Made by a program: the position numbers and the translations under genes
Shown here: in pieces, positions 4,332 through 42,609 of the stretch
Position numbering within the stretch: position 1 is the stretch's first letter
How the letters are laid out: each line of letters starts with the position of its first letter
The notes under the pieces: model-generated
What the model was told of the DNA's origin: nothing
Database searches by the model: none
Seen by the model: the letters and a program-made list of their open reading frames with translations, nothing else
From: Candidatus Magasanikiibacteriota bacterium
Lineage (GTDB): Bacteria; Patescibacteriota; Patescibacteriia; Magasanikbacterales; UBA922
DNA length: 64,000 bases
Assembly: GCA_043809645.1 (NCBI GenBank)
Contig: JBDROX010000036.1
Span: forward strand, 1,713 to 65,712
Direction of reading: 5' to 3'

Positions 4332-6899
4332 CTAAAGACTTGCTTCTATAGAGTCAGTATCTGCTTGTCCTTCTGACTCACCAAGCTTTGTCCTTTCCAT
4401 AATCTCTGACTCTACGATCATTTGGTCACGCCCATACTTGAGTCTGGAGAGCTGCTTAATGGCATTTCCAAGTTCTTTATTTCCTTGCATTGGTGGAAAT
4501 GTCTGCATGAGGAATGGTTTTGAAGCAGTATTATCAATTAGGAGTTTTGTATACCAGGAGAACATTGGGGCATTGAGTAGGTCGTACGCACCAAATGTTG
4601 GTGCAAACTCCTTTGCAAGAACCTCTGAATCATCTGGTCCAATGCGGGCAGAGAACATAGTACCAGCATTACCGAGGACTGCGTCACGGATACCAGACCT
4701 TCCTTTGTCGTCTGTCAGCTGACCCATGTATTGATGGGCAATGATAAGGTCTAGCTTATATTTTCGAGCCTCAGATAGGATAGTTGAGATAGAGTCAGTA
4801 ACAAAGTTCTGGAACTCATCTATATAGAGATAAAAATCTTTTCTATCTTCTTCTTCCTGATCAGCCCTAGCAAGGGCCGCCATCTGAAGCTTGGAAACAA
4901 TAATGAGTCCGAGTAGTTTGGCATTTACCTCACCTGTTTTTCCTTTTGCAAGATTCACGAGAAGTATCTTTTGATTATCCATAATATCACGGAAATCAAA
5001 ACCTGACTTTTGCTGACCCATGATGTTTCTCATCATTTCATTCTCTACGAAACGACCAACCTTGGAAATAAGGTAGCCAAGCATTTCTGATTTATGAAAG
5101 TCACTTGTTTTTGCCATTTCCTTCTCCCAGAATGCTCGGACGACTGGGTCTTTTAATTTTTTCAAATAGACTTTTACATAGTCATCATCTGTGAACATGC
5201 GTGGAATATCAATGATAGTCCCTGGGTTATCCAGGTCGGCCATGAGTGTGAGCATCACATTACGCATATTGTGCTCGAACATTGGTCCGATCATTTCCGG
5301 TGGAAAGAGTTTGTAGAAAATTGAGATCATCTCCTGAACCGCGAAGTCTTTCTGATCCTCACTCTTCGCCTCTAACATATTGAGACCAATAGGACGTTCT
5401 GTATCAGACGGATCGAAGATCACAACATCGTCAGCACGTTCTTTTGGTATATGACTGAGGATATACTCAACGAGGTCTCCGTGTGGGTCGATAACACAAA
5501 CTCCTTTTCCTTCATGAATATCCTGGATAGCCATTCTAGATACGAAGACAGACTTACCACCACCAGACTTACCAATAATGTACATGTGTCGCCTCCTGTC
5601 TCCTTCCTTCATGAAAACATTTGTTTTTGAACCCCTATAATCAACATATCCGAGGAGGAGGCCTTCTTTTGGAAGGTTTGATGGGGGTGGGGCTTTTCTT
5701 CCTGTGAGCCATTTGACGTTTGGTGCTTCTGTAGAATGGAGCGGAAGGTGCCAGAATGAGGCCATTTCATCTGTTGTCAGTAGGATCTTTCTCTTCTCAT
5801 CAAAACTCCTGTAGATGAAGTGGCGGATAAGACCAGTTTGCTTTTTTGGAACAATGGCTTGAAAACTATTTCCATATCGATACAGATTGTACTGCCCGAA
5901 GGAGCCTATGAGGTCATCTAGATGGAGCCTGGCAGCCTCTTCCTGATCAGCAACACTCAGAAGTCTAATAGTCACATCCATGCCACCACGACTCAGCTTT
6001 TCCTCAAATCCCTTTAGCATTTCTTCTTCCATACCCGAGAGCTGGTATGGTGTGCCATCTTTTCTTTTCTCAGGATTTTGGAGCGTTTCAGTGAATTCTT
6101 TTGATCCTTTTTGGAAAGCTCTCCCAAATGCACTTCTCTTTGCAATTTGCTCGAACTTCTCACCTTTTTTTATATCACGAACCATCGTTACACCCTGCTT
6201 TCTCCAAGTCTTCACTGCACTTCTGATCACGAACTGTATTGCCATGGAGCTGTTATTGTCCTGATATTTTGATAAGACATTTAGAATGGAAGCTAATGGG
6301 TCTGATTCCATTATTTTGTATGATTTGAAAGGGAAGACACCTTTTTGCTGGGTAGTAAGGTAGGCGCCAACAATTTTACTTTTTTCAGAAAAAATATTGT
6401 AATCCTGAATCTGGTCGATCTGTGCGTGTGGATGCTGTGCATTGATCTGCTGTTCCATGAACGATCGCATCTTATTCGGGATGTCTATGTAGAAATAGAT
6501 CAGACCACCTGTAGCAACTATTTCAAAAGACATGTGGTCATTTCTACCACCAAACCATCTTGAAAATCCTTTTTGTGCTCGGAGGGCTGCTACTGCAGAG
6601 AACAGCGTCTCTGTCATTCCTATTTCCTCCTTTATCTGCTCGAGTCTGTCATCTGTGCTTGCCTGTCCACCGGCTCCTTCTGACTTTCTCTCCTTTGGAA
6701 CGAGGATTTGGAGTACAGACCTGCCAAAGGCTTTGTTTGCTTTTCCACGGTTCTGAATGAGTGTTCGAACCAGGAGGAGTATCGCAAAAACAGTAAAGAC
6801 AATGATGAGAACAATGACAATCCAAAAAAGAAGATTCCCAATTCCAGAGGAATTTAAAAGGTTTGTTTGATTGAAACCAACAAAGAATTGGAAAAACAT
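4332..6899 (-). CDS. VirB4/TrbE/TraC-family type IV secretion-type P-loop ATPase with N-terminal TM helix (VirB3-VirB4-fusion-like layout)
   Basis: 855 aa; N-terminal TM; Walker A YIIGKSGGGKS near residue 445; IDPHGD; Walker B LYIDEFQNF; ARKYKLDLIIAHQYMGQL (the RK...Q motif of T4SS ATPases, AAA_10 / CagE_TrbE_VirB type). Confidence 0.55.
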   Translation of the reverse strand: MFFQFFVGFNQTNLLNSSGIGNLLFWIVIVLIIVFTVFAILLLVRTLIQNRGKANKAFGRSVLQILVPKERKSEGAGGQASTDDRLEQIKEEIGMTETLFSAVAALRAQKGFSRWFGGRNDHMSFEIVATGGLIYFYIDIPNKMRSFMEQQINAQHPHAQIDQIQDYNIFSEKSKIVGAYLTTQQKGVFPFKSYKIMESDPLASILNVLSKYQDNNSSMAIQFVIRSAVKTWRKQGVTMVRDIKKGEKFEQIAKRSAFGRAFQKGSKEFTETLQNPEKRKDGTPYQLSGMEEEMLKGFEEKLSRGGMDVTIRLLSVADQEEAARLHLDDLIGSFGQYNLYRYGNSFQAIVPKKQTGLIRHFIYRSFDEKRKILLTTDEMASFWHLPLHSTEAPNVKWLTGRKAPPPSNLPKEGLLLGYVDYRGSKTNVFMKEGDRRRHMYIIGKSGGGKSVFVSRMAIQDIHEGKGVCVIDPHGDLVEYILSHIPKERADDVVIFDPSDTERPIGLNMLEAKSEDQKDFAVQEMISIFYKLFPPEMIGPMFEHNMRNVMLTLMADLDNPGTIIDIPRMFTDDDYVKVYLKKLKDPVVRAFWEKEMAKTSDFHKSEMLGYLISKVGRFVENEMMRNIMGQQKSGFDFRDIMDNQKILLVNLAKGKTGEVNAKLLGLIIVSKLQMAALARADQEEEDRKDFYLYIDEFQNFVTDSISTILSEARKYKLDLIIAHQYMGQLTDDKGRSGIRDAVLGNAGTMFSARIGPDDSEVLAKEFAPTFGAYDLLNAPMFSWYTKLLIDNTASKPFLMQTFPPMQGNKELGNAIKQLSRLKYGRDQMIVESEIMERTKLGESEGQADTDSIEASL

Positions 6900-7693: not shown

Positions 7694-8548
7694 TTACTTT
7701 TCAAAAAAGATGGGAATTTCCAGTGCATCATCATATTTTGGAAGGTCAGATGGATTATCTTTCTGTAGAATAAGTGTTCCACGGTCGTAGAGTGCTGGCA
7801 CCTCGAAATGAAGTTCCCCCTTGAACGGAACGAATTCTTCTGTCATCCATTCATCCTGCGCAGTAATATACCCTTCTGCAATGATTTTACCATCCCAGTC
7901 TGTGAGAATGACAGGTGCATCACCCTCGAAATACCATACTCCTCTGGCTTGTCCAGTGATCTGAAGAGGGCTCGAAATCCCAGTGTTTGGTCGTGGAGAA
8001 TCAATTCGTATACTATCAGCTTTTTCAAGCTCATTTCCAATATTTTCTGTAAATGTTTCCCTACCATGACTACAGCTTCTCGGATAGCTTTCCATGATTG
8101 GATTTTCAGCCTCAACGCAGTCAGAGAATGTTAAAATAGTGGAAGAATCATCTGAGTCAATACTACTTTGAATCAAGTTTTTTGAGAGAAAAAAGAAAAC
8201 AACAATTCCCAGAATAAATAGGCCGAGAAGTACTAGCATCATTTTTTTCTTCAAGTCAATCTCTTTTTTTGTCATCGACCTGAGGTCTTTCTCATGTTTT
8301 TTCTCCAGAGATGCTCCCAAAGCAACGCCGATCGGTAATCCAAGAGCTGGACCTAGGGCAATATTACCAATTGCAATGCCAAAAGGTATGCCAATTGCAA
8401 TGCCAATTGCAATGCCAAGGCTCATGTAGTGACCTTTTGGATGTTTTCCTGTCCTCTTAAATTCCTCCTGTTTTATTTTGAATGCTGGTATAGATACTAT
8501 TCCAATAATAATTATCATTGCGAGAATGAGTAACTGCGCTGTATACAT
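7694..8548 (-). CDS. membrane-anchored protein with Gly-rich TM region and C-terminal Gmad2-like immunoglobulin-like domain
   Basis: 284 aa; GIAIGIAIGIPFGIAIGN repeats; CVEAENPIMESYPRSC motif; SPRPNTGISSPLQITGQARGVWYFEGDAPVILTDWDGKIIAEG...WMTEEFVPFKG matches the Gmad2 Ig-like fold. Confidence 0.55.
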   Translation of the reverse strand: MYTAQLLILAMIIIIGIVSIPAFKIKQEEFKRTGKHPKGHYMSLGIAIGIAIGIPFGIAIGNIALGPALGLPIGVALGASLEKKHEKDLRSMTKKEIDLKKKMMLVLLGLFILGIVVFFFLSKNLIQSSIDSDDSSTILTFSDCVEAENPIMESYPRSCSHGRETFTENIGNELEKADSIRIDSPRPNTGISSPLQITGQARGVWYFEGDAPVILTDWDGKIIAEGYITAQDEWMTEEFVPFKGELHFEVPALYDRGTLILQKDNPSDLPKYDDALEIPIFFEK

Positions 8549-25929: not shown

Positions 25930-27000
25930 ATGAAAATTATTCTTTCAGGCGGAGGTACGCTTGGTCCAGTAACGCCACTTCTTGCAATTTATGAAGCGTT
26001 AACAAGAGAATATAAAGACGCTACTTTTATTTGGATTGGAACAAAGGGTGGTCCAGAAAAAGAGATTGTTGAGAAAGCTGGCATACCCTTCATTGCTATT
26101 ACATCTGGAAAGTTGAGAAGGTATATTTCTTTTTGGAACGTCATAGATATTTTTAGAATCGTTATTGGTTTTTTTCGATCTATCGGCATTATGTTTCGCT
26201 ATAGTCCAGATGCCTGTATCTCTGCTGGTGGATATGTTTCAGTGCCATTACACTGGGCAGCCTGGCTCTTTGGCGTTCCTTCTTGGATTCATCAGCAAGA
26301 TGTGCAAGTAGGTCTTTCGAACAGGTTCATGGCACCTTTCGCACGTATAATCACGACTTCTCTAGAGAGTCAGATGAAACTATTTCCAAAAAGAAAAGTA
26401 AAGTGGATTGGAAATCCTGTTAGAAATGAAATTTTGAGTGGATCAAAAGATAGAGCAATGGAGTTGTTTGACCTAAAAGAGGATCTACCTATTATTTTTG
26501 CAACAGGTGGGGGAACTGGGTCGCTACGTGTTAATCAGATGATAGTGGAGGCTGTTGGACATCTCAAGGGCCATGCACAAATTATTCACCTCACTGGAAA
26601 GGAAAGACCTCAAGAACTTGCAGAAAAAGCGCAAAAACATTTTGATTACTATCAGGTTCATCAATTTTTTTCCGAGGAGATGAAACATGCATATGCTGCT
26701 GCTGATATTGTGATATCGCGTGGCGGGTTTGGAACACTGAGTGAACTGGCAGCACTCTCGAAGCCAGCCATTCTTATTCCAAAACATGGTCACCAAGTTC
26801 AGAACGTTTCATTTCTTGCTGAGGCCGGTGCCGTAGAGGTAGTTGATGAAACAACGAAGGATGGAAATTATCTTGCAAGACTTGTAAAGGATTTGATTTC
26901 AGATAAAAATAGAATGATAACGCTCGGAAGTACACTGAACAAGACAATGCCTCTGGCAACAGAGACAAAAATAGTTGGTATATTAAAAAGCATTTTGTAA
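25930..27000 (+). CDS. murG: undecaprenyldiphospho-muramoylpentapeptide beta-N-acetylglucosaminyltransferase
   Basis: MKIILSGGGTLGPVTPLLAI, GT28 fold; 2-nt gap after ftsW. Confidence 0.85.
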   Translation: MKIILSGGGTLGPVTPLLAIYEALTREYKDATFIWIGTKGGPEKEIVEKAGIPFIAITSGKLRRYISFWNVIDIFRIVIGFFRSIGIMFRYSPDACISAGGYVSVPLHWAAWLFGVPSWIHQQDVQVGLSNRFMAPFARIITTSLESQMKLFPKRKVKWIGNPVRNEILSGSKDRAMELFDLKEDLPIIFATGGGTGSLRVNQMIVEAVGHLKGHAQIIHLTGKERPQELAEKAQKHFDYYQVHQFFSEEMKHAYAAADIVISRGGFGTLSELAALSKPAILIPKHGHQVQNVSFLAEAGAVEVVDETTKDGNYLARLVKDLISDKNRMITLGSTLNKTMPLATETKIVGILKSIL

Positions 27001-27153
27001 TCAGAGTGGGAAAAACTAACTATGATAATCCTTATTCTGTCTATAATTATTATCACCACTATTGCTTTGGTCGGCTTCTTTGTTGTTCGGAGCGTCGAAG
27101 ATGATGATTTGAGCGGAAGTTAATCTCATTTTTTTCCTCAACAATAGTAAAAA

Positions 27154-27178
27154 AACCTTGACTATCAAGGTTTTTTTA
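27154..27178 (+). terminator. rho-independent terminator
   Basis: aaccttga-cta-tcaaggtt followed by ttttttt. Confidence 0.55.
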
Positions 27179-27333
27179 CTATATATTAAGCGAAACCATG
27201 GAGGGAGAGATGCAGAATGATCTCATCGCTATGTTTGTAGTCTCCGCATGTCTATTGCTGGTCAGCTGGCTTATCGGCCGATATGCGGCACCATTGGGAG
27301 ATCGGCCATTCCAGTGGGGGCTGAGAGGGTCCT

Positions 27334-27528
27334 ATGAACCTAACACTTGCTATTCTGCTAGCACTACTCCTGGTAGTACTAGTCTGGTGGCAGATCAAGA
27401 CAAGTAGACCGTGGAATCTAATCGTCAGCGGGACGTCGACGATTCTCACGTTCTTTCTCATCACGATCGTTGTTTTTATCATACTCATTGTGAGTGCTGT
27501 TGATAAACAGCACTCACAGGGGTGGTGA
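27334..27528 (+). CDS. possible small two-TM peptide inside a GC-anomalous islet
   Basis: 64 aa MNLTLAILLALLLVVLVWWQ...ILTFFLITIVVFIILIV; overlaps another small ORF (27198-27407). Confidence 0.2.
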   Translation: MNLTLAILLALLLVVLVWWQIKTSRPWNLIVSGTSTILTFFLITIVVFIILIVSAVDKQHSQGW

Positions 27529-27609
27529 GGCACGACAAGGGGGATCCGGATGAAGTGGAGGCGTCTGGATCAAACAAAAAAACATCAGACTATGGTGTTT
27601 TTTTATATT

Positions 27610-29022
27610 CTAGAAAAATCTATCCCATATTGTAACAACGGAGAAGATTCCGAAGAAGATAAAGGAAAATATGATAATGATTCTACGCCAGATCTTTGGT
27701 TGAATTTCTTTTGGAAGCTCGCGGTAGTTTAGCCAATTGACAAGGCCAATGTGAACAAACATACACACAGCATTGATAACAGCACTAAGTATAAGGAGCG
27801 AAAGAGGTTCTGTGAAGCCGAGTGAGAAGACTAAAATACCAAATGCAATCTGTGCCCAGAGGAATGCAAAATAAATCTTCGAAAGATTTATCCTTCTCTC
27901 TTCATGTGATCGAATCGCAGCATAGTTCTCTGACATGATCCTACTTGTAGAATCCATAACTGAGAACTGTGTTGAGAAGAGCATAATTCCCATCAAAATA
28001 AGGAAGATTGATCCAAGTGCTGGAAATGTTTTACTTGCAATGATTCTTCCTTCATTGATAACAAAGTTTATACCTTCTGCATTCCCAGCCAATCCAAACG
28101 TTGTGGAGTAGGAGAGTAAGAGGAGAAAAGACATGGTGATGAGGCCTGTCAGAAAAAACACAAAAAAGTGTTCCTTGTTCACACTCTTCCACCATGATTC
28201 GAATCTACTCAAGTTTTCTTTTGTAGGATGAAACTCAAAACCATTGAGATCAATCTTCTGTTTTGTTCCACCAAAAAGGCCTTTTATTTTTTCTGTGAAA
28301 GCACCCATGCCGTATCCTTTTTCTCGAATATAACTTGATTGTGTAAGATTTAGATTTCCTCCAGCACCACTAAAGGCAAAGGCAGCCAGAAACACTGCTA
28401 TTGGAATTCCAGCTGGGAGGAACCAATATTCGCCTCCTTTTCCAATCAGACCTTGTCCGAGTGCTGCCCAGTCAGCTCCCTTTGCAAAGTATATAGTAAG
28501 AATAAAAACTGAAGGTATGCCGATCAATATAATCAACTTAGCAAATCGCTCGACAGTATTATAGATATATTTTCCAAAACTGAGGATGAGGCCGATCAAA
28601 AGTAAAAACACAATAGCGATGACAGTGCCTGTACCACCAAAGACTGAAGCAAAAAGTGCTCCAGACGAAGCAATAATACCTGGCCACCCAAACCCAATCA
28701 TTGTAGAGAAGATGAGCCAGAATGGGACCCATTTCCACCTCCTTGCAAGACCAATGAAAACACTCTCACCTCTGGCAAGTGAATATCGCTCTATCTCCAT
28801 ATTGATAAAGAACTGGAAAAAAATGCCAACAAGTGCTCCCCATGCAATGCCAAGTCCCCAGTTTGAGGAGAGATACGGCCAGAGAATAACTTCGCCAGAC
28901 CCGAGGCCAAGACCGAGCAGAATGAAGCTTGGGCCGAGGAGCTTGCGAAACGGAGGGGGCTTTGGAATTGATTTTGATTGTTTTTTGAGCATAAAAGCGG
29001 GATTATCTTGACTTTCTAACAA
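27610..29022 (-). CDS. NRAMP/MntH-like divalent metal transporter (distant)
   Basis: 470 aa, about 11 TM; GPSFILLGLGLGSGEVILWPYL...MEIERYSLARGESV parallels the NRAMP GPGFL...DPGN...LLW...LQELSARLG signature. Confidence 0.45.
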   Translation of the reverse strand: MLESQDNPAFMLKKQSKSIPKPPPFRKLLGPSFILLGLGLGSGEVILWPYLSSNWGLGIAWGALVGIFFQFFINMEIERYSLARGESVFIGLARRWKWVPFWLIFSTMIGFGWPGIIASSGALFASVFGGTGTVIAIVFLLLIGLILSFGKYIYNTVERFAKLIILIGIPSVFILTIYFAKGADWAALGQGLIGKGGEYWFLPAGIPIAVFLAAFAFSGAGGNLNLTQSSYIREKGYGMGAFTEKIKGLFGGTKQKIDLNGFEFHPTKENLSRFESWWKSVNKEHFFVFFLTGLITMSFLLLLSYSTTFGLAGNAEGINFVINEGRIIASKTFPALGSIFLILMGIMLFSTQFSVMDSTSRIMSENYAAIRSHEERRINLSKIYFAFLWAQIAFGILVFSLGFTEPLSLLILSAVINAVCMFVHIGLVNWLNYRELPKEIQPKIWRRIIIIFSFIFFGIFSVVTIWDRFF

Positions 29023-37566: not shown

Positions 37567-37965
37567 TCGGCGGTAGCTCAGTGGTAGAGCAGTTGGCTGT
37601 AAAATTGTTTGCAGCCTTCAATGGAAACATTGGAGTGAAAACAAGGTGAATTGCTGGGAGCCCTCTCTCCTGAATTATCAGGTCTGGGTAATCAGCAGCC
37701 AATCCTTTGCGGAGACGCATTCAGGCAACAGGTGTAGAAATATACAGGTCTGCATGCGGCAAGATTTGCGAAGGCAGGTTCAGAGACTATCCTTAATTGG
37801 AGTAGTTCAAAGGTGGTGCACCTTTGAACGAAGCGCCTTGCACCCAAACGCTCTCGACAAGATCGAGTTATTACGTGGGTGATGATATATAGTCCATCCT
37901 TTGGTGAAAGCCAGAGACAAGATGTAACCAATTGGTCGCCGGTTCGAATCCGGCCCGCCGAGCCA
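37567..37965 (+). tRNA. tRNA-Asn(GTT) gene interrupted by a group I intron in the anticodon loop (exons 37567-37600 and 37925-37965, encoded CCA)
   Basis: Exons alone fold as a canonical tRNA: acceptor TCGGCGG/CCGCCGA, D arm GCTC-AGTGGTA-GAGC, anticodon stem GTTGG/CCAAT, spliced loop CTGT|TAA, T arm GCCGG-TTCGAAT-CCGGC, G73, CCA. Confidence 0.8.
37601..37924 (+). ncRNA. group I self-splicing intron (324 nt, ORF-less)
   Basis: P1: exon GGCTGT pairs with internal guide gcagcc (37611-37616), U.G at the splice site; P element aattgctggga (37649-37659); Q taatcagcagcc (37689-37700); R gttcagagactatcc (37779-37792); S gatgatatatagtcc (37881-37895); P7 GACTAT/ATAGTC; terminal G at 37924. Confidence 0.85.
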
Positions 37966-37974
37966 TGAATTTTC

Positions 37975-38020: not shown

Positions 38021-38120
38021 GGAGGGAAATCGGATTCGAACTTTATGATTATTTTTTTGAAATTCATGTTATAATATAACCAATAATGAAATTAAAACTA
38101 TTTTATGTCTAAAAAAAATA

Positions 38121-38915
38121 TTGTTTCTTGATTTTTTTAATCCAGGAATGGATTTAATAAGATATTATCATCAGCAACAAGATGCTAAAGTGAAATATGG
38201 TAGTCTTTTCCATGGTGGATCGTTTTTGGAAAATGATTTATACTCATTTGACTGGTTAAATAGATTTGAAAACGCGTGGTTTGGTTTGTATGATGTTATA
38301 TATACATCATCAAAATATACACTCAAATCATGTCCTAAGTCTATACGAAGCAAGTTTAAAGTGTTTCCATGGGGTATGGACGGTATAAAATTTTATGCAA
38401 ATTCTTCTACAAAAGAATGGGGTGTTGTTTTCCCGCATAGATTAAATTCTGATAAAGGTGTGGAGGATTTATTGATAATTATAAAATCAATTCCATATGC
38501 ATCTTTTGCTATTACCGTACCACAAGATTTGAATACACTTACGGAAAATAAATTTTATAAAAAAATTGCTAAGCACAAAAATGTTACTTTTGTCATTAAT
38601 GAGTCAAGAGATCAGCATTTAAAAACACTTTCTAAATCTCGTATTATTTTGAGCTGTGCAAAACAAGAATTGTTTGGTTATTCAGTAATGAAAGGTGTAT
38701 TATCTGGATGCATACCTGTTCTACCAAACCAACTTTGTTATCCAGAATTTTTTGATAAAAAATTTATGTACAAAGATGTTGACGAGGCAATTAATATGAT
38801 AAAAGAATTCATTAAGCAAGATGTGGACGGTGTGGGTGTTAAAAAACTTGATGAGGTAAGAAGGTGTGTATCTTCAATGACTTTTGGAAAGATATTATCC
38901 GATTTTTTTAAGTAA
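38121..38915 (+). CDS. glycosyltransferase-like protein (GT-B C-terminal domain, GT1/GT4-like), N-terminal domain apparently truncated; very AT-rich
   Basis: ELFGYSVMKGVLSGCIPVLPN matches the E-x-FG...EA...G-PV nucleotide-sugar-binding block; only about 100 aa precede it; TTG start in the ORF track, alternative ATG at 38148. Confidence 0.4.
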   Translation: MFLDFFNPGMDLIRYYHQQQDAKVKYGSLFHGGSFLENDLYSFDWLNRFENAWFGLYDVIYTSSKYTLKSCPKSIRSKFKVFPWGMDGIKFYANSSTKEWGVVFPHRLNSDKGVEDLLIIIKSIPYASFAITVPQDLNTLTENKFYKKIAKHKNVTFVINESRDQHLKTLSKSRIILSCAKQELFGYSVMKGVLSGCIPVLPNQLCYPEFFDKKFMYKDVDEAINMIKEFIKQDVDGVGVKKLDEVRRCVSSMTFGKILSDFFK

Positions 38916-38942
38916 TATTTGAAATTAAAAAGTGCACACTCG

Positions 38943-39380
38943 CTAAAAGCATACACTTGACCTCCAAACGCAGACTCCGTCTACAGGATCAATTTTTTGA
39001 ATATGAGGCATAGAATATATATCTATGTCTTTTTTTGCTACAAAGATCAATCCCTTTCGTTTTGTGTAAATTGAATCATGAAAGTGAACTTCAACTTGTT
39101 CGTAGAGTGACCCCTCAAATTCTGTCAGTTTATCTTGTATGTTGTTGAACTCCTTTTCTGATGTATCAAATGTGTTGAACGTTGCCGAAATGAGATGTCC
39201 AGATTCGCAGAGTACTGCGAGTGGGTAAGAATATACACCATTTGGTTCTGTATAGTCTGTAACCCTGTACAGCCAACCTCTGATGAATCCACATATCACA
39301 TGGATAGGCAATGTTCCGCATATTTCACGAAGCAACTCGCTGTTTATCAGTGTTCCATAAAATATGAACGAATTCTGCAT
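38943..39380 (-). CDS. gamma-glutamyl cyclotransferase / AIG2-like family protein
   Basis: N-terminal FIFYGTLINSELL (the GGCT family YGTL motif), 145 aa. Confidence 0.55.
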   Translation of the reverse strand: MQNSFIFYGTLINSELLREICGTLPIHVICGFIRGWLYRVTDYTEPNGVYSYPLAVLCESGHLISATFNTFDTSEKEFNNIQDKLTEFEGSLYEQVEVHFHDSIYTKRKGLIFVAKKDIDIYSMPHIQKIDPVDGVCVWRSSVCF

Positions 39381-39967
39381 TGTAGACTCCTTTTTGTGTT
39401 ATCCGAATAGAGTGCTAACATGTTTTTAGGGTTTTGTCAAGACCCAAGTGGACAAAAACCGTATTGGCCAATACGCTTTTATAAAAAATTTACCGCCAAA
39501 GAAAAACTTGAAATCGCCAAGAAACACCCGACCTCCCCGCAAAAGCGGGGGTGATTGGTTAGGTGCGGCCGCCCCCCTCCGGCCGCACTCATTGTTGGAA
39601 ATGTTTTCGAACTTTCGCGTATTCGCGGAGCCCAGTATAAAAGAAGTTCACTAGGAACTTCTTTTTAATTTCGTATATTGACTTTAATGAAATTTTATGA
39701 TATCTTTGCAAAATCTTTATAGAAAAAGACTATATGTTAAATAAAGTACTAAAAAAATTAAAAGAGTCTGAAATGAAGAATCAGATACGTAGTAGCACTT
39801 CCTCAACGTATGCAGACTACGCCCATACGCTCAATACAAAAAGCTCTGGTTTTCATGCAAAGAAAACAAGTCAGCTAGGTGCTGAAAGGCAACGGAGTAT
39901 AGGCAATAGACAGGGGAAACCAACAAAGAAAACTACATAAAGCTGAATTAGTACTTTTTTTACTTTT

Positions 39968-41011
39968 ATGAATCGAGAGAAAATAATTCAGGAATTTGTC
40001 CCAGGAATACAAAAGTTTCGTTTTGACCAGATAAATAAGGCTCTTTTTGATACTATCTACTCATCTTGGGACGACGTGACGACACTTCCAAAAGAAATGA
40101 AGGCTATTCTTGGTGATAATATCCCTTGGCTTTCATTTCAAGAAAAAGGTTTACATGAAAGTGCCTCACAAGACACATTCAAGGGAATATTTGAAACAGA
40201 TGATGGATTGCTTTTTGAATCAGTACTGATGAAAAATAGAAAGGAGCAGTGGACAATATGTATTTCCAGTCAAGTGGGGTGTGCAATGCGATGTGCTTTT
40301 TGTGCAACCGGTGCAATGGGATTGAAGAGAGGGCTTGAGAGTTGTGAAATTGTTGATCAGTATAGATTCTGGCAAAACTTTCTGAGTGAGCACCCAAACT
40401 TTTCTCAGAGAATTTCTAATGTAGTATTCATGGGAATGGGAGAACCTCTCGCCAATTATGAAAATGTAAAAGCGTCCATTAACACATGGCTGAAATACAC
40501 TGACCTTGGCCCGTCAAAAATTTTGGTTTCAACAGTTGGTATTCTTCCTCAGATGAAAAAATTGCTCACTGATCCAGACTGGCCTGCCACTCGCATTGCA
40601 ATTTCCTTGCACAGCGCAAATCAGCAGAAGCGAGAGGAAATAGTTCCAACAACAACACCAAATTTTCTGAAAGATATAGCAGTCTGGTCTCATGAATATG
40701 AGAAGTTCCGTGGAAATAGAAATCATAAACTTACTTTTGAATATACGCTTATTTCTCATGTCAACGATACACCAGAGCTTGCAGAGGAGCTGGCAAGCTA
40801 TATCGTTAAAACAGCAGTAAGTAAGGTAAATGTGATTCCGTACAATCCAGTGAAAGAAAAAGAATTTTCAAGAGCTGAGAGGGAAAGAATTGATGCATTC
40901 AAGGATATTCTCCGAAATCACGATATTAATGTAACAGAAAGAAAAACAATGGGAGATGACATCGATGCTGCCTGCGGTCAGCTCGTGACACAGAACTCGT
41001 TCTGCACTTGA
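39968..41011 (+). CDS. rlmN: 23S rRNA/tRNA adenine C2-methyltransferase, radical SAM (RlmN/Cfr family)
   Basis: CISSQVGCAMRCAFCATG radical-SAM CxxxCxxC, conserved C-terminal Cys in DIDAACGQL. Confidence 0.85.
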   Translation: MNREKIIQEFVPGIQKFRFDQINKALFDTIYSSWDDVTTLPKEMKAILGDNIPWLSFQEKGLHESASQDTFKGIFETDDGLLFESVLMKNRKEQWTICISSQVGCAMRCAFCATGAMGLKRGLESCEIVDQYRFWQNFLSEHPNFSQRISNVVFMGMGEPLANYENVKASINTWLKYTDLGPSKILVSTVGILPQMKKLLTDPDWPATRIAISLHSANQQKREEIVPTTTPNFLKDIAVWSHEYEKFRGNRNHKLTFEYTLISHVNDTPELAEELASYIVKTAVSKVNVIPYNPVKEKEFSRAERERIDAFKDILRNHDINVTERKTMGDDIDAACGQLVTQNSFCT

Positions 41012-41036
41012 CAAACGTATACTTATCTGCTATACT
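41008..41036 (+). promoter_or_regulatory. sigma70-like promoter TTGACA-17-TATACT for the DEAD-box helicase gene (overlaps the rlmN stop)
   Basis: ttgaca 41008-41013, 17-nt spacer, tatact 41031-41036. Confidence 0.5.
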
Positions 41037-41190
41037 ACTACATTCAATAAAGCCTAGAACTATCTAGGCGGCTCGAATCCTATTGTGTCATTGTGACCTG
41101 CCTGCCGGCAGGTAGGCCTCTACGAACATCGGGTCACAGAGTACCGTTTGGTACTGTGCTCCGCTCATATAGTGGGGTTAGAATATATAT

Positions 41191-42609
41191 ATGACACAAG
41201 ACAAAAACATAGGTAATTTTGATTACCTTGGGATTGGAGAAAAACTTCTGACAATTCTAAAAAACAAGGGTTTTGAAACCCCAACCCCGATTCAACATCA
41301 GGTTATTCCTGCTGCCCTAGAAGGAAAAGATGTGGTAGGCATTGCACAAACTGGGACTGGAAAGACCCTGGCTTTCGGCATTCCGATCCTTGAGAAAATA
41401 CTAAAAGGGAGCGGGCAGGCACTCATTATGGTGCCAACACGTGAGCTTGCACTCCAAGTAGAGGCATCTCTGAAGCAAATCGGAAGTACACTCGGACTCC
41501 GAACAGCTGTCATAATCGGGGGCGTAGCACAGGGAAGACAGGTGCAAAATATTCGAAATAATCCACATGTCATCATTGCAACACCTGGACGTCTAGACGA
41601 CCTCATGAAGCAGGGTCAGTATAAACTAAACAAAGTTGAGATTATTACACTCGACGAGGCAGACAGAATGCTCGATGTTGGATTCCTTCCACAAATCAAG
41701 CATATTTTACAAACTGCACCGCAGAAGAGACAAACCATGCTCTTCTCTGCTACTATGCCGAAGTCTATCTCTTCTCTTGCGAGCCAATTCATGAAGATTC
41801 CTCTCAGAATTGAAATTGCACCCCAAGGAACTTCTGCAGAGCACGTTGAACAGGAAGTATTTGTCATTAGAAAAAATGACAAGATGCGCCTCCTTGACTC
41901 AGTGCTCGAAGAGTATAAGAGTGACAAGACACTCATCTTCTCTCGAACCAAGCACGGTGCAAAGCGTATTGCACGCGAGATCAGAAACATGGGCCACACA
42001 TGTACAGAAATTCATGGAAATCGATCACAGCCACAGAGAGAGAAGGCACTCGAGGGCTTCTCTGGTAGGCGATTCCGTATCATGGTTGCGACAGACATTG
42101 CAGCACGTGGTATTGATGTCAGAGATATTGGTCTGGTACTGAATTTTGACCTTCCAGACAATTCAGAGGACTATGTTCACAGAATTGGAAGGACCGGACG
42201 AGCAGGGCGATCTGGAAAAGCAATCTCATTCATCGACCCATCACAGAAGGCTGATGTGAGTAGAATAGAGAGACTCATCAGAAAATCTCTAAAAGTCCTT
42301 TCTCTTCCACAGCTACCACCACCAAGACCCAAGGCTCCAAAAGAGAATAAACCATTCTCTGGATGGCAACCAAGGCGACAGGGTGGAGGATATGGTGGGC
42401 CAAGAAAACGTCCTGCTGGACACAGCAAGCAAAAACCGTCGTCTAACTACAACAGACGAAATTCTTCGTCTAACGAAACCAAGTCAGAATTTACTCCAAA
42501 AAGAGAAGATAAAAACTGGGATGGCGAAAAACAGAGGGGTAGAGCTCCTTCGAAGAATAAACAAAAACCACAGAGAAGTCGAAATAGCGGGAAGAGGAGA
42601 ACAAGATAA
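41191..42609 (+). CDS. DEAD-box ATP-dependent RNA helicase with Arg/Gly/Lys-rich C-terminal tail
   Basis: Q motif, AQTGTGKT, PTRELA, DEAD in LDEADRML, SAT, HRIGRTGRAGRSG. Confidence 0.9.
   Translation: MTQDKNIGNFDYLGIGEKLLTILKNKGFETPTPIQHQVIPAALEGKDVVGIAQTGTGKTLAFGIPILEKILKGSGQALIMVPTRELALQVEASLKQIGSTLGLRTAVIIGGVAQGRQVQNIRNNPHVIIATPGRLDDLMKQGQYKLNKVEIITLDEADRMLDVGFLPQIKHILQTAPQKRQTMLFSATMPKSISSLASQFMKIPLRIEIAPQGTSAEHVEQEVFVIRKNDKMRLLDSVLEEYKSDKTLIFSRTKHGAKRIAREIRNMGHTCTEIHGNRSQPQREKALEGFSGRRFRIMVATDIAARGIDVRDIGLVLNFDLPDNSEDYVHRIGRTGRAGRSGKAISFIDPSQKADVSRIERLIRKSLKVLSLPQLPPPRPKAPKENKPFSGWQPRRQGGGYGGPRKRPAGHSKQKPSSNYNRRNSSSNETKSEFTPKREDKNWDGEKQRGRAPSKNKQKPQRSRNSGKRRTR

Follow-up and report, generated by a model that had tools for sequence, protein, structure and literature searches.

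A hairpin-rich stretch upstream of rlmN in a Magasanikbacteria genome as a candidate orphan small RNA

The question raised by the locus described here is whether a stretch of about 200 bases with several GC-rich hairpins, located between a GGACT/AIG2-like gene and rlmN in an AT-rich Magasanikbacteria genome, is the gene of a structured small RNA (sRNA), a leader of the genes downstream, or the debris of a rearrangement. The stretch lies within positions 39400-39730 of a window of 64,000 nt, the whole piece of DNA that was analysed, and all coordinates for this genome are positions in this window. The original prediction reported three consecutive GC-rich stem-loops and proposed a structured small RNA, a riboswitch or leader for rlmN, or the terminal structure of a putative islet. 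Here we present the structure of the stretch, the searches for its relatives and a description of its surroundings. The reading favoured here, with a probability of about 0.4, is that of a candidate lineage-specific, independently transcribed structured sRNA of approximately 185 nt, read from the plus strand.

The features of the stretch and the signals next to it are as follows.

39412-39440, minus strand: putative promoter of the GGACT-like gene, TTGACA (39440-39435), 17 nt, TGt-TAGCAC, read from the sequence
39449-39477, plus strand: promoter-like site before the hairpins, TGGACA, 17 nt, TACGCT, 8/12 in a relaxed scan
39460-39475, both strands: perfect 16-bp palindrome CGTATTGGCCAATACG, a possible operator common to the divergent promoters
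39484-39533, plus strand: A-rich 5' segment that contains CGCCAA(A)GAAA twice and stays largely unpaired in the centroid fold
39535-39550 (39534-39551 with a U·G pair), plus strand: hairpin 2, CCCCGC/AAAA/GCGGGG, six G-C pairs
39563-39588 (39562-39589 with a G·U pair), plus strand: hairpin 3, GTGCGGCCG/CCCCCCTC/CGGCCGCAC, nine Watson-Crick pairs
39616-39627 (extended 39613-39630), plus strand: hairpin 4, CGCG/TATT/CGCG (UAUU loop in RNA), with U·G, U-A and U·G pairs added on the plus strand only
39639-39665 (with T-run to 39669), plus strand: hairpin 5, AAAAGAAGTTC/ACTAG/GAACTTCTTTT, 11-bp stem and 5-nt loop
39678-39706, plus strand: promoter-like site of the operon of a 68-aa open reading frame (ORF) and rlmN, TTGACT, 17 nt, TG-a-TATCTT
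39734-39940, plus strand: the conserved 68-aa ORF, encoding a basic small protein and preceding rlmN (39968)

All four stems of hairpins 2 to 5 are perfect, with zero mismatches and 30 Watson-Crick pairs intact. The three stem-loops of the original prediction were confirmed from the sequence, with coordinates that had been 1-2 nt off. The sequence of hairpin 2, the first of the three, was given correctly, but the hairpin lies at 39535-39550 and not at 39537-39552; the 9-bp stem of hairpin 3 is real, but its loop has 8 nt instead of 7 and the hairpin spans 39563-39588 instead of 39564-39588; the terminal hairpin with its T-run, placed at 39641-39669, exists as a stem-loop at 39639-39665 with the loop ACTAG. 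The tandem TTCGCG motif is likewise present (TTCGCG-TA-TTCGCG) and additionally forms hairpin 4, and the 16-bp palindrome at 39460-39475 had been overlooked. One CCUCC motif is located in the 5' flank and arm of hairpin 2. The C-rich 8-nt loop of hairpin 3, CCCCCCUC, holds the only C6 run of the window and a second CCUCC, no more than 45 nt from the first.

The hairpin cluster exceeds chance expectation. Perfect GC-rich hairpins are few, with only about 8 distinct ones in the 64 kb, of which two sit here 13 nt apart; shuffling the window 100 times produced neither the pattern of hairpin 2 nor that of hairpin 3. In no other 100-nt segment of the window (mean 0.397, standard deviation 0.062) does the GC content reach the 0.61 measured here, a value at or above that of the tRNA genes (0.51-0.57) and above that of the structured leader of a helicase gene described below; several coding regions of the window also reach 0.55-0.59. 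The plus strand folds with a z-score of -3.34 over 236 nt and of -4.21 over 189 nt, and 0 of 200 shuffles were as stable. The claim that GC-clamped hairpins are unusual in this AT-rich genome is therefore borne out by GC peak, hairpin count and fold z-scores.

On the minus strand the fold is not significant (z = -1.81). Hairpins 2, 3 and 4 are extended by G·U pairs on the plus strand only (T39534·G39551, G39562·T39589, T39615·G39628 and T39613·G39630), whereas the same positions are A·C mismatches on the minus strand; by our estimate such an extension arises by chance in about 1/6 of the cases per stem, which gives about 0.005 for 3 of 3. The last hairpin is followed by T5 and then AATTT on the plus strand, but merely by T4-A on the minus strand. 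Taken together, the G·U asymmetry, the fold z-scores and the better T-run point to an RNA read from the plus strand. Hairpin 5 has an A/T-rich stem with 3 G-C pairs and, with its stable stem-loop and the U-run directly after it (T5 in total, then AATTT, on the plus strand), the form of an intrinsic (Rho-independent) terminator. It is missing from the list of a consensus terminator scan, in our reading because the maximal stem absorbs four T residues. Hairpins 2 and 3 are not ordinary terminators, because neither is followed by a T-run on either strand, the next bases being GTGATTGG and TCATTGTT on the plus strand and AGGTCGGG and CTAACCAA on the minus strand.

From these observations we infer transcription of an sRNA, its 5' end and any function that it may have. 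Transcription would start near 39484, a putative position set by the weak promoter-like site at 39449-39477, in which the 16-bp palindrome overlaps the spacer. The RNA would begin with an A-rich single-stranded 5' part, continue with three very stable hairpins (39534-39551, 39562-39589 and 39613-39630) and end at the intrinsic terminator 39639-39669, at about 39668, before the separate promoter of the 68-aa ORF/rlmN operon. Its gene would lie within what is left of a glycosyltransferase/GGACT-like cluster after partial deletion and rearrangement. Through its exposed, C-rich loop CCCCCCUC(C) and the other CCUCC motif, the RNA could conceivably, going by analogy, pair with G-rich or Shine-Dalgarno regions of mRNAs. 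The proposal of a structured small RNA is plausible, and it is the strand-specific structural signs that make it the preferred one, but no conservation was found.

The site at 39449-39477 is the sole plus-strand promoter-like site upstream of the hairpins in the relaxed scan. Measured from its centre, the palindrome that covers this spacer lies approximately 25-30 bp upstream of the -35 box that serves the divergent GGACT-like gene, and this position near both divergent promoters means that the palindrome could be a shared operator. Its 10-bp core ATTGGCCAAT (39463-39472) recurs once in 89 loci, at 4316-4325 of L032, the most divergent homologous locus. In both loci the core precedes the GGACT-like gene, at a distance of 70-90 nt (70 nt in L032). 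This isolated recurrence is suggestive of a shared operator, or else a coincidence.

Several results weigh against an sRNA gene. The promoter-like site from which it would be transcribed is weak (8/12). Rfam 15 was searched with the whole window at the gathering threshold, and with 39350-39760 also at E <= 10. No family matched in 39350-39760 at the gathering threshold, and the best entry at E <= 10 was the DUF3577 RNA with 17.1 bits (gathering threshold 42.6, E = 1), which is noise; the Rfam or Infernal scan that the original prediction had suggested as a check therefore matched no family even at the relaxed cutoff. A single-sequence covariance model of the stretch with its four stems, run on 54 loci, found only the stretch itself. 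The two-hairpin pattern gave 0 matches in JGI metagenomes and 0 in viral contigs, and two other segments likewise gave 0 in viral contigs. Comparison by blastn with phages yielded chance matches only, to AT-rich parts of the query, and comparison with plasmids yielded none. The hairpin-3 pattern occurs 33 times in 185k species genomes, a collection that does not include the present genome, always in GC-rich taxa (Streptomyces, Acidobacteriota and others) and 0 times in bacteria of the candidate phyla radiation (CPR); matches so confined indicate generic GC hairpins. No homologue, and hence no covariation in favour of the sRNA, was found in anything searched, and the databases contain no close relative: the nearest RlmN among 5.8 billion proteins is 76% identical, and no genome is closer than that. 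RlmN also places the source, a metagenome-assembled genome, in Candidatus Magasanikbacteria, a CPR lineage. The second suggested check, an inspection of homologous loci for the hairpins and for covariation, showed 13 homologous clusters and eight relatives with rlmN to be devoid of the stretch. As to the mode of action, a Shine-Dalgarno core is present in only 3 of 54 start regions, defined by crude start codons, and a crude duplex scan of the C-rich loop against these 54 start regions gave no convincing target, which leaves an anti-Shine-Dalgarno mechanism speculative. Signal recognition particle RNA and 6S RNA were rejected for their different architecture and the missing Rfam match.

One other weak match of the covariance model is an ordinary bidirectional terminator in the locus L001. 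This terminator, CCCGC/AAAA/GCGGG at 8093-8106, is located between convergent genes and has A- and T-runs on its flanks.

The downstream neighbour of the stretch is not rlmN, as had been stated, since the conserved 68-aa ORF (39734-39940) intervenes before rlmN (39968). A tblastn search with the 68-aa protein gave 46-56% identity in L001, where the gene lies downstream of rlmN, and in L005 and L006, where it lies just upstream. In L001, the closest relative, the order is ftsE, ftsX, tRNA-Gln, a tRNA gene with a group I intron, a terminator and rlmN, with approximately 110 bp before rlmN; compared with L001, the interval from the tRNA terminator to rlmN is longer by about 1.9 kb in the window. 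In seven further relatives other genes are located 8-110 bp upstream of rlmN. By blastn and covariance model the stretch is absent upstream of rlmN in all eight relatives (L001, L004, L005, L007, L008, L009, L011 and L012), a further point against a conserved RNA.

The proposal of a riboswitch or leader for rlmN did not hold. It is contradicted by the terminator at 39639-39669, the later promoter-like site at 39678-39706 and the 68-aa ORF before rlmN, and in addition by the lack of any Rfam match at E <= 10 and by unrelated upstream regions in the eight relatives. An rlmN riboswitch was rejected, as the stretch does not lie in the 5' untranslated region between the rlmN promoter and start and is not conserved upstream of orthologs. 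As a positive control, the structured 5' leader of a DEAD-box helicase gene, 1.4 kb downstream, is conserved in L004; because it is recognisable there, the conservation of a functional leader is detectable at such a distance.

The helicase leader deserves a description of its own. It occupies 41005-41192 of the plus strand, with a perfect sigma-70 promoter (TTGACA-17-TATACT) followed by a strongly structured leader of approximately 150 nt (z = -4.7). At 6035-6222, L004 retains the promoter, the blocks GGCTCGAATCC and ATCGGGTCACA, and a hairpin in which the changes are compensatory. No Rfam family matched it at gathering thresholds in the scan of the whole window, and it may represent an undescribed leader motif in Magasanikbacteria. 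The basic small protein of 63-68 aa, which belongs to no Pfam family, is found near rlmN in Magasanikbacteria but changes side (L001 6637-6831, downstream of rlmN; L005 4801-4992, upstream). Further upstream in the window, a group I intron (37591-37916, about 330 nt) interrupts a tRNA gene at 37567-37966 of the plus strand. It was missed by ARAGORN and by the Rfam scan of the whole window, and a focused scan identified Intron_gpI with 82.1 bits; the same intron-bearing tRNA follows tRNA-Gln in L001 (68 bits).

The extra DNA between the tRNA genes and rlmN carries the following features.

38121-38915, plus strand: 5'-truncated glycosyltransferase remnant, 264 aa versus approximately 342 aa in homologs
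38882-38932, both strands: left arm of an inverted repeat, comprising the last 11 glycosyltransferase codons and a 17-bp flank
38943-39380, minus strand: GGACT/AIG2-like gene, 145 aa, convergent with the glycosyltransferase remnant, with an AAAGGAG Shine-Dalgarno sequence 7 nt before the ATG
39661-39713, both strands: right arm of the repeat, derived from the 3' end of the glycosyltransferase gene, copied in inverse orientation and since decayed

The glycosyltransferase remnant aligns with residues 80-341 of its homologs at 51-54% identity, so that about 79 N-terminal residues have been lost; the C-terminus ...ILxDFFK* is conserved. The GGACT-like protein seemed an orphan in a word-indexed protein search, and its family was found by tblastn on 44 metagenome loci anchored on the glycosyltransferase: homologs with 26-46% identity directly follow the glycosyltransferase, in convergent orientation, in at least 16 metagenome loci. 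The Pfam family GGACT (PF06094) is matched by 3 of 11 family members. On longer contigs (L090, L091 and L017) the full cluster consists of a GT2+BpsA_C protein (627 aa), an ATP-grasp_3+AdoMet decarboxylase protein (462 aa), the glycosyltransferase and the GGACT-like gene on the opposite strand, and these four genes are conserved and intact in other CPR bacteria. With the glycosyltransferase truncated and the two upstream genes gone, the window holds only the tail of the cluster, whose domains suggest polyamine-linked chemistry.

The hairpin stretch, judged from these comparisons, is not part of the cluster module. It is absent from the upstream regions of 13 homologous GGACT-like genes, again to the detriment of a conserved sRNA. 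These 13 regions share only the ribosome-binding site and a TTGAC-like -35 box, the latter at a similar distance in most homologous loci, and are otherwise unrelated and mostly AT-rich; L017 is the one homologous locus with a GC bump upstream, which is not significantly structured. An origin of the stretch as a decayed GGACT-like or other cluster gene was rejected, as tblastx and tblastn gave noise only.

Two details of annotation concern the genes of the remnant. The public annotation begins the GGACT-like gene 27 codons too late (118 aa); the 145-aa start has a GGAG ribosome-binding site and includes the family-invariant motif IFYG(S/T)L. The glycosyltransferase ORF as assembled starts with TTG at 38121. 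Before it, an ATG at 38105 precedes a run of eight A (38111-38118), and one A fewer would give MSKKILFLDFF..., in frame with the truncated glycosyltransferase. At this new 5' end, the difference in frame may reflect a frameshift on a slippery run or an error of sequencing.

The two arms form a 52-bp imperfect inverted repeat with 41 of 53 aligned columns identical (approximately 80%); its local alignment score of 22.5 compares with a null of 7.3 +/- 1.1 (maximum 13 in 3000 random pairs). It brackets a 728-bp segment with the GGACT-like gene and the hairpin stretch, and is absent from 29 homologous loci and thus unique to the present genome. The right arm reads F-A-K-I-S-* against F-G-K-I-L-S-D-F-F-K-* in the glycosyltransferase. 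As the glycosyltransferase C-terminus is ancestral, the right arm is the decayed inverted copy of the gene end, and its position places the hairpin stretch inside the remnant, near its right edge. Hairpin 5 borders the right arm on its inner side, in the same way as the glycosyltransferase/GGACT-like terminator borders the left arm, and may be what remains of the terminator that once ended an inverted gene copy, now lost. The sequence that carries the promoter-like site of the rlmN operon would likewise stem from a gene end. An assembly artefact of the fold-back or adaptor type is unlikely, because the arms have diverged (80% identical) and no known adaptor matched.

These surroundings bring up the main rival to an sRNA gene, that the stretch is a non-functional scar of rearrangement or deletion, made up of terminators and intergenic structures of lost genes or of a foreign GC-rich patch, which at most insulates its neighbours. 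We consider this possible, though doubtful. The locus is indeed wrecked, with about 79 N-terminal codons of the glycosyltransferase and two upstream cluster genes lost, and hairpin 5, next to the decayed inverted gene end, may be the terminator of the lost copy. The stretch is unique and unconserved, and rlmN of L001 follows the tRNA terminator after 110 bp, free of any insert. CCCGC/AAAA/GCGGG serves as an ordinary bidirectional terminator in L001, and sequences like hairpin 3 are common terminator-type hairpins in GC-rich bacteria. A neutral relic should, however, decay in an AT-biased genome, whereas no other 100 nt of the window are as rich in GC and none of the stem pairs has been lost, next to a repeat that has diverged by about 20%, which suggests selection or a younger age of the stems. 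Hairpins 2 and 3, having no T-runs, are not ordinary terminators, the consistent G·U asymmetry of the plus strand is unexpected for junk, and there is no residual protein-level similarity to cluster genes or the GGACT-like family. To an element acting at the DNA level, such as protein-binding or recombination sites, a low-copy mobile palindromic element or an invertible segment, we assign little probability. Intergenic GC-rich palindromes resemble repetitive extragenic palindromic (REP) elements, the inverted repeat around the 728-bp segment is significant, the palindrome is perfect with a core that recurs upstream of one homologous gene, and the insert adjoins tRNA genes, a classic hot spot of integration. 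But no second copy of any hairpin was found in the 64 kb by pattern search or blastn, and there is no recombinase, transposase or integrase among 20 neighbouring proteins (approximately 12-16 kb on each side). Neither a target-site duplication nor an att-type repeat of either tRNA 3' end was found near 39400-39730. The arms, about 80% identical, are accounted for by the duplication of a gene end and its decay, the 29 homologous loci lack the inverted repeat, and the G·U asymmetry favours RNA over DNA. The idea of the terminal structure of an islet therefore survives in part: the stretch does lie inside a lineage-specific insert near its right edge, but no att repeat, target-site duplication, recombinase or second copy accompanies it. 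More specific candidates were rejected as well, namely an integron attC site (no paired core sites, no integrase), the end of a tRNA-targeted integrative island (no tRNA 3'-end direct repeat, no integrase), a REP element or miniature inverted-repeat transposable element (MITE) (single copy in 64 kb, no target-site duplication), the guide RNAs of retrons and of TnpB/IscB (no partner gene), and dif or oriC, which were considered from the sequence and dismissed.

The remaining readings concern the flanking genes and short ORFs, of which the stretch holds more than the single one (39448-39654) that had been claimed.

39420-39554, plus strand: candidate small ORF, 44 aa
39448-39654, plus strand: candidate small ORF, 68 aa
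39589-39711, minus strand: candidate small ORF, 40 aa
from GTG 39527, minus strand: candidate ORF, 33 aa, preceded by GGGGAGG

A cis-acting 5' leader or attenuator of the 68-aa ORF/rlmN operon, with read-through from about 39484 and hairpin 5 as the regulated terminator, appears improbable. The orientation is that of the operon, the terminator is placed 65 nt before the ORF, and a weak anti-terminator could form between GAACUU (39609-39614), further upstream, and the 5' arm of the terminator; yet this alternative pairing has only 6 bp, and a separate promoter-like site lies between terminator and ORF. No riboswitch, T-box or leader of Rfam matched, the orthologous small-ORF/rlmN genes in eight relatives have upstream gaps of 8-110 bp that lack such a structure, and the right repeat arm marks everything up to 39713 as part of the inserted remnant rather than of an ancestral upstream region of rlmN. 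Still less credible, to the point of being nearly dismissed, are a long 5' leader of the GGACT-like gene on the minus strand and a small protein gene. On that strand the palindrome is followed by T5, as in an attenuator, 75 nt before the GGACT-like gene, but this gene is served by a TTGACA promoter of its own (39440-39435), which on the minus strand comes after all the hairpins, the fold is not significant (z = -1.8) and the G·U pairs turn into A·C mismatches. For the 33-aa ORF, a strong GGAGG sits 4 nt before the GTG and is partly sequestered in hairpin 2, but the distance from the Shine-Dalgarno sequence to the start is too small, and the peptide does not make a clean membrane helix. Pfam gave no match for any of the ORFs, and no translated match was found in 56 loci.

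The sRNA reading, to return to the one that is preferred, can be carried further. A young strain- or genus-restricted regulatory sRNA might have arisen from the debris of the decaying polyamine/glycosylation cluster, with an anti-Shine-Dalgarno-like C-rich loop and a palindromic operator shared with the GGACT-like gene. In this full form the scenario is unlikely.

Elsewhere in the window a gap of approximately 600 bp with no long ORF, at 27000-27610, reaches a GC content of 0.58 and contains a 13-bp perfect hairpin (27489-27518). It has two short ORFs resembling membrane peptides (69 and 64 aa) and no convincing Rfam match.

Regulatory RNAs are, to our knowledge, almost uncharted in Patescibacteria, a phylum of tiny genomes, and we know of few or no experimentally supported sRNAs there. 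If the stretch is transcribed, it would be an early concrete sRNA candidate in this phylum and an example of sRNA birth from a rearrangement scar, the wreckage of a lost cluster. If it is a relic, it would mark a recent rearrangement and record the truncation of a four-gene cluster; it may also record how gene-end debris was recruited as the promoter of the rlmN operon. The tests described above remove the more exciting possibility of a new rlmN riboswitch.

With REP elements, bacterial interspersed mosaic elements and MITEs the locus shares a cluster of short, perfect palindromes rich in GC that lies between genes, close to inverted repeats; unlike them, it is present as a single copy in 64 kb, and no RAYT, transposase or target-site duplication was found. 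As in invertons, an inverted repeat flanks a promoter-containing segment of approximately 730 bp, but here the 52-bp arms are only about 80% identical and one of them simply coincides with a gene's 3' end, the 20 neighbouring proteins include no invertase, and the promoter-like site of rlmN lies within an arm and not between the arms. GC-rich islands mark structural RNA genes in AT-rich genomes, a classical heuristic of non-coding RNA finding; the stretch fits it (0.61 versus 0.40), but the heuristic is much weaker at a genome GC of 40% than at about 30%. Compared with sRNA genes in general, the stretch has the terminator and a weak promoter-like site (8/12), and no conservation was found, with the nearest RlmN at 76%; it is at best an unconserved example of a terminator-ended sRNA, outside the known RNA families. 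A further parallel is RsaE/RoxS of Firmicutes, terminator-ended, trans-acting sRNAs whose C-rich motifs pair with Shine-Dalgarno regions (PMC6158497). Unlike RsaE, which is conserved throughout its phylum, the stretch is conserved in no relative and belongs to a CPR bacterium, and it has no sequence or covariance-model similarity to RsaE (no RsaE match in Rfam at E <= 10). In common with RsaE/RoxS (PMC6158497), the stretch is of broadly similar, small size and has stable hairpins, one C-rich motif in a loop and a second one elsewhere, and an intrinsic terminator at the 3' end, and it stands alone between divergent genes; while not a member of that family, it may act in a similar way.

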